This document shows, one piece after another, positions 33,366 to 50,900 of a DNA stretch of 64,000 nucleotides; position 1 is the stretch's first letter, and each line of letters starts with the position of its first letter. The translations under genes and the position numbers were made by a program. Below the pieces are notes generated by a model. That model had not been told where the DNA came from, ran no database searches, and worked only from the letters and a program-made list of their open reading frames with translations. The DNA is from Bacteroidales bacterium (GTDB lineage Bacteria > Bacteroidota > Bacteroidia > Bacteroidales > GCA-2711565): NCBI GenBank assembly GCA_963675215.1, contig OY775914.1:1243779-1307778 (forward strand), read 5' to 3'.

Positions 33366-34232
33366 TTATCCTTTTAGCAAATTCAATAAATAATTGCCAT
33401 AACCGCTTTTAAGCAGTGGTTGAGCAAGTTTTTCAAGTTGGGCAGCATCAATAAATTTACGTCGAAATGCGATTTCTTCGATACAGCCAATTTTTAATCC
33501 TTGTCGGCTTTCGATTACTTCAACATATTGCCCGGCTTGCAACAACGATTCAAAAGTACCTGTATCAAGCCATGCTGTTCCACGACTAATAATTCCTACT
33601 TTTAATTTTCCTTCCTTCAAATAATGCTTGTTTACGTCCGTAATTTCATATTCACCCCGTGCACTTGGTTTAAGGTTTTTAGCAATTTCTACCACTGAAT
33701 TATCATAAAAATACAAACCCGGAACTGCATAATTCGATTTTGGAATTTTTGGCTTTTCTTCAATTGAGATGGCCTTAAACTCCTCGTCAAACTCAACTAC
33801 ACCATACCGTTCAGGGTCATTCACATGATAGGCAAAAACAGTTCCGCCATCGATGTTTTTGGCACTTTCGAGAAGGAGGTTTTGCATGCCACTTCCATAA
33901 AAAATATTATCTCCTAAAACCAAGGAAACGCTGTCATTACCAATAAAATCTGCACCCAAAACAAAAGCTTGTGCCAAACCATTAGGGATTTTTTGTTCAA
34001 CATACGAAAATTTACAACCAATTTGAGACCCGTCACCCAAAAGTTTTTCAAAATTAGGCAGGTCTTCAGGCGTTGAAATAATTAAAATTTCATTGATATT
34101 TGCCATCATTAAAATGGATAGCGGATAATAAATCATAGGTTTATCATAAACCGGCATGAGTTGTTTACTAACTGCTAAAGTGAGCGGGTGTAAACGGGTT
34201 CCTGATCCTCCTGCTAAAATTATTCCTTTCAT
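33366..34232 (-). CDS. rfbA: Glucose-1-phosphate thymidylyltransferase
   Basis: [31 protein letters not shown] and WLDTGT. Confidence 0.96.
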
Positions 34233-45514: not shown

Positions 45515-46690
45515 TTAATCCATCCAATTGCTTTTCTCAAATAAGATCATGGAATCAAGCATCAGTTTTCTAAATTCATTGATAGGGCTGTTAAACAAAC
45601 CAATGAATAAGATGTCTTTTTCTGGGATGGTGATATAAAAAGCCCTGAAGCCTCCCTGAGAGCCTGTATGATAAATCAGTTTTACTCCAAAATTGGTTAT
45701 TTGATCTCTGAATAAAGATTGTTCGCCTATCATCCAACTATATCCAACATGTGGGTTTAAAGTGTCTGTCCAGTTTTTGGGATGAAAAACAGTTCTGGAT
45801 TCCTGAATCAATTCTTCACTTAAGAAGAGGTTATCTTGAATGGCATCTTCATATTTAGCGAGATCTAAAACCGTACTCCAAACGCCTCCGTTACCAGCTG
45901 CGGTAAATGTTGGAAATTCACCATAATCGTTCTCTACATATTTTTCTCCATCAAAATCGTAGGCATGCGCTACCCCACTTTCGGGATAAGCACCATTCGT
46001 AATTTTACTGTTTGCCATTCCTGAGGGTTTAAAAATGTTTTCCTCAATAAAGATTTGCCATGGCTGATTGCTTAATGATTCGATCATTAAAGCCAAACCG
46101 TTATAAGCCGGATTTGAATATTGAAATTGTGCGCCTGGCTCGAAGTTCAATTGTTCGGCTTTCTTCAAGGGCTCGAAGTTTTCAGCATCTTTGGCCGTTA
46201 AGTAAAATTCTGGATTATTTGAAACCTCTCTCAAATCGGGTAGTCCCGAAGTATGCGACAAAAGATGCTTGATTTTAACTTTTTTGGCAAGTTCTTTATT
46301 GCTGAAGTCAGGGAAGTATTTTAAAAGATTGTCGTTTACAGATAATAGATTTTTTTCATGGAGGATTAAAATTCCATTTGATACGAAGGTTTTTGAAATA
46401 GAGCCGGTATTAAAAATGGTGTTTTCGGTGATGGCCTCTTTGGTTTTCAAATCGGCCAGTCCATAGCTTTTTAAAAAAACGGTTTTACCATTTTTTTTAA
46501 CCAATATGCATCCTCCGGGTTGGTCCGGAGAAAATTCTTTTTTGAATGTTTCATCTAAATCTGCCTCTAATTTATTTCCAGATTTTGGGCTGCTGCATGA
46601 GGTGATGAATAAAATGCTCAAGAAAAATACGAATTGTTTCATCATGTTATTGGGGGAGTTTTTATCTAAATTAATTTGATCTTTTGTCAT
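45515..46690 (-). CDS. Serine hydrolase, beta-lactamase class C/PBP-like, probably a lipoprotein (start may be about 46645)
   Basis: SISK (SxxK), LLSHTSG, YSN and HTG; ITSC lipobox. Confidence 0.88.
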   Translation of the reverse strand: MTKDQINLDKNSPNNMMKQFVFFLSILFITSCSSPKSGNKLEADLDETFKKEFSPDQPGGCILVKKNGKTVFLKSYGLADLKTKEAITENTIFNTGSISKTFVSNGILILHEKNLLSVNDNLLKYFPDFSNKELAKKVKIKHLLSHTSGLPDLREVSNNPEFYLTAKDAENFEPLKKAEQLNFEPGAQFQYSNPAYNGLALMIESLSNQPWQIFIEENIFKPSGMANSKITNGAYPESGVAHAYDFDGEKYVENDYGEFPTFTAAGNGGVWSTVLDLAKYEDAIQDNLFLSEELIQESRTVFHPKNWTDTLNPHVGYSWMIGEQSLFRDQITNFGVKLIYHTGSQGGFRAFYITIPEKDILFIGLFNSPINEFRKLMLDSMILFEKSNWMD

Positions 46691-46722
46691 TTTGTAAGGC
46701 TCATGTTTCTAGCGAGTAAGAA

Positions 46723-46765
46723 CCTGCCAATGTTTTAGAGCCTTTGTTGGGTGTTCGTGTTTTTA
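46723..46765 (-). repeat. Truncated attC-like site (left arm only)
   Basis: Minus strand TAA-AAACACGAACACCCAAC-AAAGG-CTCTAAAACATTGGCAGG; 23 of 25 nt identical to the site after the 47820 gene. Confidence 0.55.
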
Positions 46766-46990
46766 TTTTAATAATTCCTTTTTAAAGTATCTGAATGACA
46801 ATACTATCAAACCAAGCAATCCTAGGATTTTAAGCATTTGTCCGAAAACTTGTCCTGTAGATTTACCAAAATCAAATACTGAATCGTAATTGGGATAATT
46901 GTCTATTAGGGTATAAAGAAATGAAAGAAAAAATATTGCTATCACAATAATAACTAATCTTAGAACCTTGCTGTTTTTCTCGTTTGACAT
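46763..46990 (-). CDS. Small two-TM hypothetical protein (putative cassette gene C)
   Basis: 75 aa with two hydrophobic helices; bounded by attC-like sites. Confidence 0.65.
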   Translation of the reverse strand: MSNEKNSKVLRLVIIVIAIFFLSFLYTLIDNYPNYDSVFDFGKSTGQVFGQMLKILGLLGLIVLSFRYFKKELLK

Positions 46991-47041
46991 ATTTGTTTTT
47001 TTAAGTTAAAATATTCAATTTGTTTGATTTTTTCGCATGAT

Positions 47042-47154
47042 GCCTAACGGTTTTACCATGATTAAGTGGTCTCGCTTTTAGCGGGAACAGGCAGGAATAC
47101 CCTAAGTTTTGATACCCGTCTGAGTGCCATAAACTGTAACTTTTATTAGCAAAT
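47042..47154 (-). repeat. attC-like recombination site
   Basis: Minus strand begins ATTTGCTAAT just after the stop at 47156 and ends CCG|TTAGGC, matching the GTTRRRY consensus; 113 bp. Confidence 0.6.
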
Positions 47155-47155
47155 G

Positions 47156-47599
47156 TTATTCTATAAAAATATTATAAATTCCAGTCTGTTCGTCATACTC
47201 AAATTCGCAACCTTCCAATTTAATTTCATTATATTTGGTGTAAGCACATCTATCGTGTATTCTTTCCGAATCAACATATAAAGTGCAGATTGCTTCACCT
47301 AAAATTTCTAGTCTGTAATTTACAATTTCTGTCTTCCAGCCAATTGTACGAATAAATACTAAACTTCTATCATTAGTAAAAGGAAAGGGGGCGATACTAT
47401 TGTCCGAAAGATTAATTAATTTAACATCACTTGTATAAAGTGTCCCGTTAGTAAGCAAATTCTGCCCTGATACTTTATCAATCAATGCAAATCTTAATGG
47501 AGCAGGACCAGTAAAACATTCATAAGAAGGAGGATCTTTTTTACAAGAATGTAAAATGACTAGTACGAATAAAAGTAAGATTGTTGTTCTTGGTTTCAT
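47156..47599 (-). CDS. Hypothetical lipoprotein (putative cassette gene B)
   Basis: LHSC lipobox followed by KKD; 147 aa; flanked by 10-bp inverted cores. Confidence 0.75.
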   Translation of the reverse strand: MKPRTTILLLFVLVILHSCKKDPPSYECFTGPAPLRFALIDKVSGQNLLTNGTLYTSDVKLINLSDNSIAPFPFTNDRSLVFIRTIGWKTEIVNYRLEILGEAICTLYVDSERIHDRCAYTKYNEIKLEGCEFEYDEQTGIYNIFIE

Positions 47600-47617
47600 G
47601 ATATTTCAAATTTTAAT

Positions 47618-47822
47618 ATTTGCTAATGGTTTATGTAAGTTGAGTGCGGGATTAAAAGTTGGTAACTTTCAAGACCGCACGAAGCCAATTCGTTTATTCA
47701 ATACTTCAAATTTTCCGTCAATCGTCAAAGACGAATTGGCGGTGTTGCAACAACGAGGAACAGTTGATCTACCTGCTGAAACCCGCATTATATTTACATT
47801 TTGTTGTGCGTTCGTGTTTTTA
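47618..47822 (-). repeat. attC-like recombination site
   Basis: Minus strand GCACAAC (RYYYAAC-like) ... CCA|TTAGC; inner arms 47634-47650 and 47782-47798 pair 13/17; perfect internal 10-bp inverted repeat at 47684-47693 and 47731-47740. Confidence 0.68.
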
Positions 47823-48947
47823 TTCCTTTGCAAATAAATTATCATCATCTATTGTAGATAATTCGATATGTTCGGCATCTTTTTTAGTTGCTTTTATATA
47901 ATATCTTGATGGCGAATGAATTATCATTTCAAATTTATTTGAAGTTAAAGAATCCATTACTTCACCATAATCGTTCATTTTCATTAAAAAAGATTTTTGT
48001 TTTTCGTTAGGAAAACCAATTGTTCCTTCAAATACAAAATTATTTGATTCACTGAAAATGATCTGGTCAAACCAACTAAAGGTTGGATGCTCGAATCTTC
48101 TTGTCCATAACGTGTCGCCTATTTCATTTGTCCTTATCACTTGACAATCGGTCATTTGTGGTAAAGTTCTACCTGCTCTACCAACTATAAGGAATCCATT
48201 GTCATGTAATTGTAAAATGTCATTTCCGCCTTCAAGCGAAGGGTGTTCGTCACGTTTATAGGTTTTGCTTAAAAGCTCATTTCCATCTGAATCATATGTT
48301 TTTAAATATACTTGATGTGAAGCATTATAAGTTCCCGTAATTGCAAATCCGTTATTTGATGTAGAAACAATTTGGATTGGAGAATATTTATTATCCTTAA
48401 AATTCTTTTTCCATTGAAGATTGAAATTTTTGTCAAGTTTTATTGTTATACCATATCCAAATAAGATAAAACCTTCATCATTTGTTCTGAGCACATTTGA
48501 AACATACATGTCATCAAATTTAAATTTTTGAATTTGATTCCCATCTTGTGTTAACAGAACAATTAATGCTGAAGAATATATGACATCTCCACCTTCACTT
48601 ATTGAACCAAAACAAACATACACCCCATTACTTAACTGAATAGCTTTTACCATTTGGAAAGAATAAAATATTGATCCCCAGCCTGAGCCATAAATAAGGG
48701 TTCCCCATTCATAGTTATTTTTTGTCCATTCGATATTAAGATTTTTATCAGTTTTAATCAAGGTGTATTTTCCGTTAGAAGGACCGGAAATAAGAAATTC
48801 ATTATCGTTAGTAAAAGATATGTTATCAACATTGTCTAATTGAAATGTTTTGGAAAGATTTCCTTTGAAAGAAATTTCATCGAATTCATCTTTGCATCCA
48901 AAGACAAAAGTCCAAGCTATGAGTATCAGTAAAAATTTTGATTTCAT
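47820..48947 (-). CDS. Hypothetical beta-propeller-like lipoprotein (putative cassette gene A)
   Basis: VFGC lipobox; repeated xxGFxxxG and LxWxK units. Confidence 0.75.
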   Translation of the reverse strand: MKSKFLLILIAWTFVFGCKDEFDEISFKGNLSKTFQLDNVDNISFTNDNEFLISGPSNGKYTLIKTDKNLNIEWTKNNYEWGTLIYGSGWGSIFYSFQMVKAIQLSNGVYVCFGSISEGGDVIYSSALIVLLTQDGNQIQKFKFDDMYVSNVLRTNDEGFILFGYGITIKLDKNFNLQWKKNFKDNKYSPIQIVSTSNNGFAITGTYNASHQVYLKTYDSDGNELLSKTYKRDEHPSLEGGNDILQLHDNGFLIVGRAGRTLPQMTDCQVIRTNEIGDTLWTRRFEHPTFSWFDQIIFSESNNFVFEGTIGFPNEKQKSFLMKMNDYGEVMDSLTSNKFEMIIHSPSRYYIKATKKDAEHIELSTIDDDNLFAKE

Positions 48948-49278
48948 AAGAATAGTTTTTCTTTAAGATGAAATTCATAGTGTAATGGTTGCTTTTAAAA
49001 TGACGCAAACTATTATATATACCTTTCTTGCACAATGACATCCAAATCCTCCAAAGGCGGACAAGTTGGCAGGGATGCTGCAGTTTTTCTTGTGTTTTAT
49101 ATTTCATCGATTTAAATAAATCGAGGCGTTTCTTGTTTTTGGGGAGTTGATGGTCTTAAATCATTGTTTTAAAATCAACCATAAATTTAATAATCAAATA
49201 TATGAAAAATGTAGATGTGTTGGAAGGCTTAGGAATTTCCCATATAAAATGTAGTATGTGAAATGTAAAAAGCAATAA

Positions 49279-49344
49279 ATTGCAACTGTATTACTATTTT
49301 ATTACTACTGAATTACTACTGTATTACCACTGAATAACCATGGT
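49279..49344. repeat. Six degenerate 11-bp tandem repeats
   Basis: ATTGCAACTGT ATTACTATTTT ATTACTACTGA ATTACTACTGT ATTACCACTGA ATAACCATGGT. Confidence 0.8.
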
Positions 49345-49409: not shown

Positions 49410-50900
49410 TTAGTATTTCGCAGCTTTACCATCAGGTAAACTCTTTAAAATAAATTCCCTTAAATCGTCGTTGGCGGTTTTTAAATCTTCCTTTCGCAAA
49501 TACATCATATGACCGCTTCGGTAGCCTTTAAAATACATTCGGTCTTTTAGTTTTCCGCTGGGATCAATTTGCCACATCGTATATTTTGAGTTGAAATAGG
49601 TGCAAGCGCCGTCGTAATATCCGGTTTGGAACATGATGTTGAGGTAAGGGTTTTCGGCCATGGCCTGTCGTAAATTATCGCGGGTATTGTTATTGTCGTT
49701 GTTCCATGGGCGAACAGAACCAAACATATTGTATTTAATATCGGTTATAAAATTCAGGTGTTCGCGCATATAGAAATTAATGGCCGGAGTAAAGGTGTGT
49801 AACCACGATTTGATTTCTGCATTAAAATCGGGACTTATACCGGCATCGGTTTTATCCAATCCCAGATATCTGGAATCCAATCGACCGATGGTCTTTCCGG
49901 TTTCATCTCTCAATAATTCTTTCCAGAAAAAAGAAGTAGATATGTCCAAATTATGTTGAAGAATGGCCTTTTTAGAAAGCCCTGAATAATAAGCCATTTT
50001 TTCGGCTACTGCCTGTTTTTCTGCTTCATTAATAAATCCTCCCTTTGCAATGGCAGGCATTAATTTATTGATGGCAAAATCTTCAACCTCCGGTAAAACC
50101 TCGAGTAAATCTTTTTGTTGCAGTACTTCGGGAAGAACTTTATGATGCCAGGCTGTGGCTGCAAAGTAAGGCAAATTAATGGCAGAAGAGATGGCCGGAT
50201 CAGAATTGAAGGCTTTATAATCAGCAGGCGAAACCAGGATTACACCGTTTAAATACATCCATTGCTGATCTTGCAATTCGAGTGCTAAACCCGAAACACG
50301 CGTTCCACCATAACTTTCGCCAATGATAAATTTGGGCGAAAGCCAGCGATTGTGTCGGTTTACAAAAGTGTTGAGCCATTCGGCTAAATATTTGATGTCG
50401 GCATTAATTCCAAAAAACTTCGTGCGATCAAGTCCTTCTCCATTAGCGGGAATCATTCTTGAATAGCCCGTATTAACCGGGTTAACGTAAACAATGTCTG
50501 TCACATCAAAAACAGAAAATTCATTTTCATGCACGCCATAAGGCTGCAATGGATATCCTTCGGGGTCGATATTTAAGGCCATGGGGCTGGTATAGGCCAT
50601 GTGCATCCATGCTGAGGCCGAACCAGGACCGCCGTTATAGGAAACCAGTAGAGGTCGCCTAGCCATATCCGTATTTCCTGATTTTTTGTAATAAGTAAAT
50701 TGAAGGGTGGCAACAGCTTTGCCATTTTCATCCCAAACAGGTTGCATTCCTGCAGTGGCAGTGTAGGAAATTTTGTTTCCGTTAATGGTAGCAGTATGTG
50801 AAGTAACAACTGCAGTGTCGATAGGGATGCTTCGGTTCTGGGCACTTAGTAGATTAATGCTTAATAAAAAGGAAAGCAGGCAAAACGTTAAAGTTTTCAT
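49410..50900 (-). CDS. Serine carboxypeptidase, S10 family
   Basis: Signal peptide; YNGGPGSAS, PVNTGYS, GESYGGTR, GYYD and GHMMY. Confidence 0.92.
   Translation of the reverse strand: MKTLTFCLLSFLLSINLLSAQNRSIPIDTAVVTSHTATINGNKISYTATAGMQPVWDENGKAVATLQFTYYKKSGNTDMARRPLLVSYNGGPGSASAWMHMAYTSPMALNIDPEGYPLQPYGVHENEFSVFDVTDIVYVNPVNTGYSRMIPANGEGLDRTKFFGINADIKYLAEWLNTFVNRHNRWLSPKFIIGESYGGTRVSGLALELQDQQWMYLNGVILVSPADYKAFNSDPAISSAINLPYFAATAWHHKVLPEVLQQKDLLEVLPEVEDFAINKLMPAIAKGGFINEAEKQAVAEKMAYYSGLSKKAILQHNLDISTSFFWKELLRDETGKTIGRLDSRYLGLDKTDAGISPDFNAEIKSWLHTFTPAINFYMREHLNFITDIKYNMFGSVRPWNNDNNNTRDNLRQAMAENPYLNIMFQTGYYDGACTYFNSKYTMWQIDPSGKLKDRMYFKGYRSGHMMYLRKEDLKTANDDLREFILKSLPDGKAAKY

Follow-up and report, generated by a model that had tools for sequence, protein, structure and literature searches.

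Three unrelated genes lie one behind the other on the minus strand of a 64,000-nucleotide (nt) stretch of a Bacteroidales bacterium genome (contig OY775914.1, positions 1,243,779 to 1,307,778; hereafter, the window), each followed by a structured repeat. A preliminary description of this DNA took them for mobile gene cassettes in a CALIN-like array, handled by a tyrosine recombinase encoded elsewhere, CALINs being attC clusters without an integron integrase (Cury et al. 2016, Néron et al. 2022). The locus raises the question of whether these repeats are recombination sites at all, and, if so, which enzyme could have assembled them. The answer we arrived at is that positions 46691-49125, which carry an attI-like head followed by three unrelated, co-oriented cassettes (A, B and C), probably represent a satellite array without an integrase, part of an integron-like gene-capture system and served by a recombinase that would act in trans, and that the array has since decayed.

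The window array and its attachment sites

A 20-nt motif located after the stop codons of genes A and C recurs in look-alike sites elsewhere in the genome (a single 4.05-Mb contig, estimated to be 96% complete), one of them 3 kb from the gene that best resembles an integron integrase. The bulk of such sites make up a main array of 80 kb and about 80 cassettes, i.e., short genes each ending in a conserved site of 130-190 nt. This main array begins immediately behind the stop codon of P0001, a co-oriented tyrosine recombinase gene (2,627,435-2,628,583, minus strand; 383 amino acids) located 1.33 Mb from the window array. The first site lies 345 nt downstream of this gene, on the same strand. Using 14 main-array sites, and none from the window, we built a covariance model (R1), which showed compensatory changes in 7 of 14 stem pairs. 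Across the genome the model found 101 sites: 80 at 2,547,040-2,627,090, 7 at 1,310,426-1,314,231 and 14 scattered.

Within the window, R1 recognized two sites on the minus strand, site 1, a long form of 189 nt (47621-47809; 36.2 bits), and site 2, of 110 nt (47042-47151; 33.3 bits), with E-values of 2e-6 and 1e-5 in the window search, corresponding to 1.4e-4 and 6.2e-4 genome-wide. The next match in the window (16.5 bits, 33956-33987) lies inside a coding gene and was rejected as a chance match. A third element, half-site 3 (46691-46752, minus strand), marks the end of the array: it comprises an R'' core (ACCCAAC) and a left arm homologous to that of main-array sites, is colinear with their first ~50 nt (as aligned to the site at 2,615,554), and is truncated after GAAAC, leaving no GTT core and no right arm. 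R1 missed it (6.6 bits). What the preliminary description called a left-arm remnant is this half-site. No Rfam family matched the window or the main array (L009). The window thus holds two model-significant sites and a half-site within 1.1 kb with no integron integrase nearby, which bears out the CALIN-like reading, the sites being attC-like by this genome's own model and not by the standard attC model. As had also been described, the repeats sit close behind stop codons, beginning 2-13 nt past that of each of the three open reading frames (ORFs).

If cassettes are exchanged at such sites, the start and end of each unit should carry the trace. We compared the first ten bases of each unit (GTT plus seven) with the last ten before the site (ending in AAC), and found complementarity of at least nine of ten in 57 of 67 main-array cassettes, as against 16% of random pairs. 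The two ends of the same site were complementary in only 15%, versus 85% across units. Such start/end complementarity is the mark of a crossover at G|TT. In the window, the ends of the gene B cassette form a perfect inverted pair (ATTAGCAAAT / ATTTGCTAAT; 10/10, with a chance of ~2e-6 at fixed positions), so that the shorter inverted core noted earlier is real and extends further. For cassette C, the start GTTAGGCATC and the end ..AACACCCAAC agree at 6 of 10 bases (4 of 6 in the core), and every mismatch is a transition, again as described. Cassette A fared differently: at its homology-defined junction, GTTTGCGTC fits the complement of its end (GTTGTGCGTTC) only with two 1-nt gaps. The 6/6 match formerly credited to it (TTGTGC/GCACAA) involves a motif that is part of the head and is identical in the main attI, in the congener G210 and in both heads of the congener G207; it is probably coincidental.

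The head itself spans ~115 nt (~49010-49125, minus strand), as defined by alignments and junction comparison, and includes positions 49073-49030, formerly taken for the right-arm remnant of an attC site. It contains a conserved core, ...TGAAATATAAAAcACAAGAAAAaCTG...TTGGATGTCATTGTGCAAGAAAGGTATATATAATAG, with the crossover G at 49010 and TT at 49009-49008, as well as a 19-nt insert (CCAACTTGTCCGCCTTTGGAGGA) shared with three other integrase-less heads. The window head aligns with the sequence found directly after the recombinase stop codon in the present genome (G000) and in G207, G204 and L010/G210, where L010 is a 'Bacteroidales bacterium' metagenome-assembled genome whose recombinase is 87% identical to P0001. 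Conservation holds in every copy as far as ...ATATA.TAG|TT, beyond which the sequences diverge, in the window exactly at 49010/49009. In L010 the first cassette is unlike that of this genome, and its ends are again 10/10 complementary. Such conservation up to TAG|TT behind the recombinase stop codon, combined with differing first cassettes, identifies the module as an attI-type insertion site, which in these four genomes adjoins the recombinase gene.

Is the window array still an active, mobile cassette set? Several of its parts look serviceable: the GTT of the attI-type junction (49010-49008) and the R' core of site 2 (GTTAGGC) are intact, the gene B ends pair perfectly, and the genome has an apparently active recombinase and a platform, 20 kb away, into which cassettes recently moved (see below). 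The sites tell another story. Site 1 retains its R'' core (GCACAAC) and an outer stem (ATGTAA..TGCGGG / CCCGCA..TTACAT), is ~75% identical to the main-array site at 2,624,002-2,624,190, and has 80-89% identical copies in five congeners, but its R' core has mutated to ATTAGCA (GTT>ATT). Site 2 is a diverged copy of the main-array site family with an internal deletion; its R'' core has mutated to TGCTAAT (AAC>AAT) and six of its stem pairs are non-canonical. Whereas typical main-array sites score 120-135 bits with R1, sites 1 and 2 score only 33-36. Folded as single-stranded DNA, window sites 1-3 reached z-scores of +0.4 to -1.6 (-1.9 with flanks), no better than shuffled sequences, as compared to -4.5 to -6.0 in the main array, and site 2 had no significant fold on either strand; to call these sites full palindromes was thus an overstatement. 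Moreover, site 3 lacks its right arm, and no copy or paralog of A, B or C was found elsewhere in the genome. We therefore consider a still active array unlikely. As judged from its sites, the window array is probably old, decayed and now largely immobile, and its three envelope-protein genes are probably fixed in place by that decay, i.e., the GTT>ATT change in site 1, the AAC>AAT change and broken stem of site 2, and the truncation of site 3.

The main array, its recombinase and movement in trans

In the main array, sites follow stop codons, the AAC and GTT cores are conserved and the stem covaries, as in attC sites; the window sites fit the same model with mutated cores. In all six main-array sites folded, folding favored the bottom strand, with z-scores of -4.5 to -6.0 as against -2.9 to -4.3 for the top strand. 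The favored strand is the one complementary to the genes, and it matches the reactive bottom strand of classical attC sites. We infer that these are attC-type sites recombined as folded single strands. Not every unit carries a gene: 22 of 67 are 376-400 nt long, contain no ORF of at least 60 amino acids and recur many times over as near-identical repeats, and might be RNA genes, promoters or selfish filler. By GC skew, replication starts near 0.75 Mb and ends near 2.54 Mb, and the cumulative maximum (the presumed terminus, ~2.54 Mb) coincides with the distal end of the 80-kb array. A rule based on replication bias was rejected, as the arrays run with replication at some positions and against it at others.

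A second integrase-less array, with seven strong sites, lies at genome positions 1,310,200-1,314,900 (minus strand), 2.4-7.1 kb past the end of the window and 20 kb from the window array. The final codons of a recombinase gene survive in its head. Compared with main-array cassettes at offsets of 63.2, 31.9, 28.1 and 0.14 kb, the cassettes of this second array are 100%, 100%, 99.8% and 99.8% identical, i.e., they appear in scrambled order, and the boundaries of the matches are cassette boundaries. Such cassette-by-cassette copying into an integrase-less platform indicates that movement has been recent and in trans.

P0001 is the recombinase at the head of the main array. It contains the SAM-like and catalytic domains typical of tyrosine recombinases, and the catalytic residues R, K, H-x-x-R, H and Y are invariant in an alignment of 30 sequences. 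Its closest solved fold is that of the integron integrase VchIntIA (2a3v), followed by XerA, in a search in which the catalytic domain prevailed. Among NCBIfam models, archaeal XerA fits best, at 192.7 bits (cut-off 220), and P0001 falls below the cut-offs of all Xer families; the genome also has separate XerC/D-like genes, of 292 and 308 amino acids. Against the integron integrase family TIGR02249, P0001 aligns in two stretches that skip model positions 182-238, the IntI-specific insert, and the same gap appears in the alignment to VchIntIA. No gene in the genome reaches the TIGR02249 cut-off, and P0001 is not an IntI by the accepted definition (PF00589 plus the IntI-specific profile). It also has an extra N-terminal domain (residues 1-75; ~105 amino acids in the comparison with known integron systems) that matches no family, showing only weak Pfam matches to DUF5710 in 12 of 30 relatives. 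This domain is confident in the full model, with a beta-beta-alpha-beta-beta-alpha order, and a single-sequence model of residues 1-80, with a predicted local distance difference test score (pLDDT) of 51, was too poor to use. We infer that P0001 is the acting enzyme, on the grounds of its linkage to the arrays and its conservation.

This linkage extends well beyond the present genome. P0001 orthologs (76-87% identity) head co-oriented arrays in the congeners G207, G210 and G204, and in four further families of the order arrays are headed by homologs of 39-55% identity, making eight genomes and five families in all. Congeners without an ortholog have 4-9 sites, versus 15-101 in those with one. 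Homologs occur in 92 of 201 sampled genomes of the order and among thousands of database proteins, including on Bacteroidota plasmids and on 49 Acinetobacter plasmids. One truncated homolog, on the Klebsiella michiganensis IncC plasmid NZ_CP084417.1 (L047; 5142-6763), is 44% identical to P0001 residues 133-381 and ends 110 nt upstream of a co-oriented blaVEB-3 gene, with GTTAGCG 37 nt before the start codon; the site downstream is cut short by other DNA.

These findings bear on the idea that the attC likeness is superficial, i.e., that the repeats are repetitive extragenic palindromic (REP) or bacterial interspersed mosaic elements (BIME), terminator-like structures or miniature inverted-repeat transposable elements (MITE), with no relation to the recombinase. 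The repeats are indeed intergenic, follow stop codons, form imperfect palindromes and number about 100, and many main-array units have no ORF. Elements of this class would be dispersed, without linkage to a recombinase and without complementarity across genes; here, 80 of the 101 copies sit in one co-oriented 80-kb block that starts at the stop codon of a recombinase gene, this linkage is repeated in the eight genomes, the complementarity holds across genes and not within a site, and whole units are copied with exact boundaries. In addition, no T-tract terminators were found, and neither target-site duplications nor terminal inverted repeats were seen. We consider this explanation highly improbable. 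The same can be said of a classical integron whose true, insert-bearing IntI was lost very recently or missed in the unassembled 4% of the genome, leaving P0001 a bystander Xer-like gene: the incomplete assembly, the site architecture and the G|TT crossover would all suit it, yet nothing on the single 4.05-Mb contig reaches the family cut-off, in four genomes the conserved attI starts where the reading frame of the P0001 ortholog stops, such orthologs head arrays in other families, and congeners lacking the ortholog have fewer sites.

Dispersed heads and the locus in related genomes

A profile of the attI-like head, searched with nhmmer, found a head 0.4-3.3 kb upstream, on the same strand, at 10 of the 12 attC loci outside the main array (~1% chance per locus), a count that includes the window head, itself one of the seven profile sequences and matched by construction (genome 1292781-1292888). 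The dispersed heads end in GTTRRRY-like cores, e.g., GTTAGCA and GTTACCA, and no recombinase pseudogene or fragment adjoins any of them. At one locus (2,681,950-2,682,674) a head with a weak profile match (junction ...AAGTTAGCG) precedes a single short unit that closes with a half-site. This half-site (2,681,950-2,682,013) is truncated at the same point as window half-site 3, and the twin truncation suggests that arrays end recurrently at the internal GAAAC of a site.

Upstream of the window head, at 49285-49340 (minus strand), a Tandem Repeats Finder and repeat search revealed ~4-5 copies of an 11-nt tandem repeat, ~275 nt from the attI-type junction, and similar DNA stands next to heads in G207 and G204. 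As pure speculation, these repeats might be accessory binding sites for the extra N-terminal domain of the recombinase. Inside the head, at 49012-49041 on the minus strand, a sigma-70-like -35/-10 pair (ATGTCA-18-TATAAT) points into cassette A; Bacteroidota promoters differ from this consensus. Promoter-like matches in a scan of the window were not above chance, and no terminators were found in it.

The genes of the window array are all on the minus strand. Cassette A (47627-49009) contains gene A (47820-48947), encoding a predicted lipoprotein of 375 amino acids (lipobox ...FVFGC) with no family match; cassette B (47048-47626) contains gene B (47156-47599), encoding a predicted lipoprotein of 147 amino acids; and cassette C (46698-47047) contains gene C (46763-46990), encoding a hydrophobic, predicted membrane protein of 75 amino acids. 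None of the three has a Pfam, NCBIfam or defence-family match, and none is related to the others by Pfam, NCBIfam or paralogy, in keeping with their description as unrelated and co-oriented. Spacers of 220 nt (A to B), 165 nt (B to C) and 70 nt (C to the downstream flank) separate them, and a non-coding stretch of 460 nt precedes gene A. Upstream of it lies a peptidase S10-family gene (49410-50900), and the array is followed by a beta-lactamase-family (serine hydrolase) gene (45515-46690), both assigned by Pfam, on the minus strand and conserved in congeners. Comparison with the corresponding upstream sequence of G207 makes the ATG at 46645 the probable true start of the latter.

The DNA between these two flanking genes has changed among relatives. 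The peptidase S10 flank is 82-84% identical at the DNA level in G207 and G210, and between the same flanks G207 has one photolyase/cryptochrome-like ORF (L033 2163-3478) and no site, while G210 has two other ORFs separated by one canonical site (E 9e-11). None of the 12 other genomes of the genus has gene A. Genes A-C are thus not fixed across relatives, as would be expected of cassettes. In the databases, gene A has ~40 homologs, mostly on short contigs, from various Bacteroidota including Hanamia. The loci of three of them (L036-L042) gave no site-model match; at one (L041), the similarity spans the 5' leader and a AAACACGAA..CAAC tail, and not the body of the site.

Taken together, these results lead us to propose how the system may work. 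P0001 would act in trans and, like IntI, recombine an attI-type head at G|TT with an attC-type site whose bottom strand is folded; cassettes could thereby be inserted, excised and copied in the main array as well as at ten or more dispersed heads. The same route would have produced the window array, which would have decayed later; its genes may be transcribed from the head or from promoters of their own. In its widest form, the proposal describes a 'distributed integron', in which one recombinase without the IntI insert serves the 80-kb array and ten or more scattered attI-like landing pads, the window pad included, with copying in trans. We regard the chances of this wider model as about even.

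A number of observations weigh against our reading of the locus. P0001 lacks the IntI-specific insert and scores 178.5 bits with TIGR02249, against a cut-off of 265, and one homolog, in G178 (46% identical to P0001), has no array. The G210 array at the window locus has no head. Half-site 3 was recognized by pairwise homology only, and the window sites fold like shuffled sequence and have two mutated core triplets, which leaves the present-day mobility of A-C unsupported and doubtful. Finally, public runs were kept as assembled contigs only, and no recombination joints were seen in these contigs, which break in site 1 since its core is repeated. The suggestion of integron-type cassettes handled by a tyrosine recombinase encoded elsewhere is nonetheless supported, with one recombinase gene heading an array 1.33 Mb away, while present-day mobility in the window is in doubt on account of the decayed sites. 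The features by which that suggestion could be judged genome-wide, i.e., core complementarity across adjacent genes and a position behind stop codons, were both found.

Relation to known integrons

Sedentary chromosomal integrons, such as the Vibrio cholerae superintegron, and CALINs share much with the present system: small, unrelated, co-oriented genes; imperfect-palindrome sites with AAC...GTT cores; complementarity between cassette starts and ends; no integrase within reach; and, elsewhere in the chromosome, a primary array of very large size built from species-specific repeats. The system departs from them in that its recombinase has no IntI-specific insert and carries an extra N-terminal domain, its sites are 130-190 nt long with a 3-nt / 6-nt spacer geometry, and its host belongs to the Bacteroidales. 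Moreover, unlike CALINs, each satellite array here starts with its own attI-like head.

In the 'inverted' integrons of the Treponema denticola type, intI and the cassettes share one direction of transcription. The typical IntI of Spirochaetota has the reverse orientation, and in archaeal integrons attI lies immediately downstream of intI (Ghaly et al. 2022). P0001 resembles the inverted type in being co-oriented with its array, with attI downstream of the recombinase stop codon, but the integrases of that type carry the IntI-specific domain that P0001 lacks. In this respect it is closer to the Xer recombinases (archaeal XerA and bacterial XerC/XerD, acting at dif), whose catalytic core is equally long and likewise runs from the beta-hairpin lysine to the H-x-x-R box without an insert; unlike them, P0001 stands at the head of a cassette array and not at a dif site, has the extra N-terminal domain and scores below the family cut-offs. 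In architecture the system corresponds to a sedentary chromosomal integron accompanied by satellite CALINs, but it fails the test by which IntI is defined.

IntegronFinder 2.0 reports essentially no complete integrons in Bacteroidota, with the exception of Salinibacter, and in the literature searched integrons are almost absent from Bacteroidetes and the IntI-specific insert is held necessary for attC recombination. The earlier suspicion of an under-described Bacteroidota cassette system is thus supported. In the present genome an insert-less recombinase is accompanied by an array of 80 sites and no fewer than eleven satellite platforms, and standard searches would return no integron here, at best 'CALINs'. 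The window supplies a clear example of an array that has a head but no integrase and occupies a locus variable among congeners, and shows what the decay of such an array looks like. As the blaVEB-3 context illustrates, such platforms may be a source of clinically relevant cassettes. If the distributed integron is real, the IntI-specific domain would not be required for integron-type recombination, and integrase-less arrays could be primary insertion platforms and not just debris.

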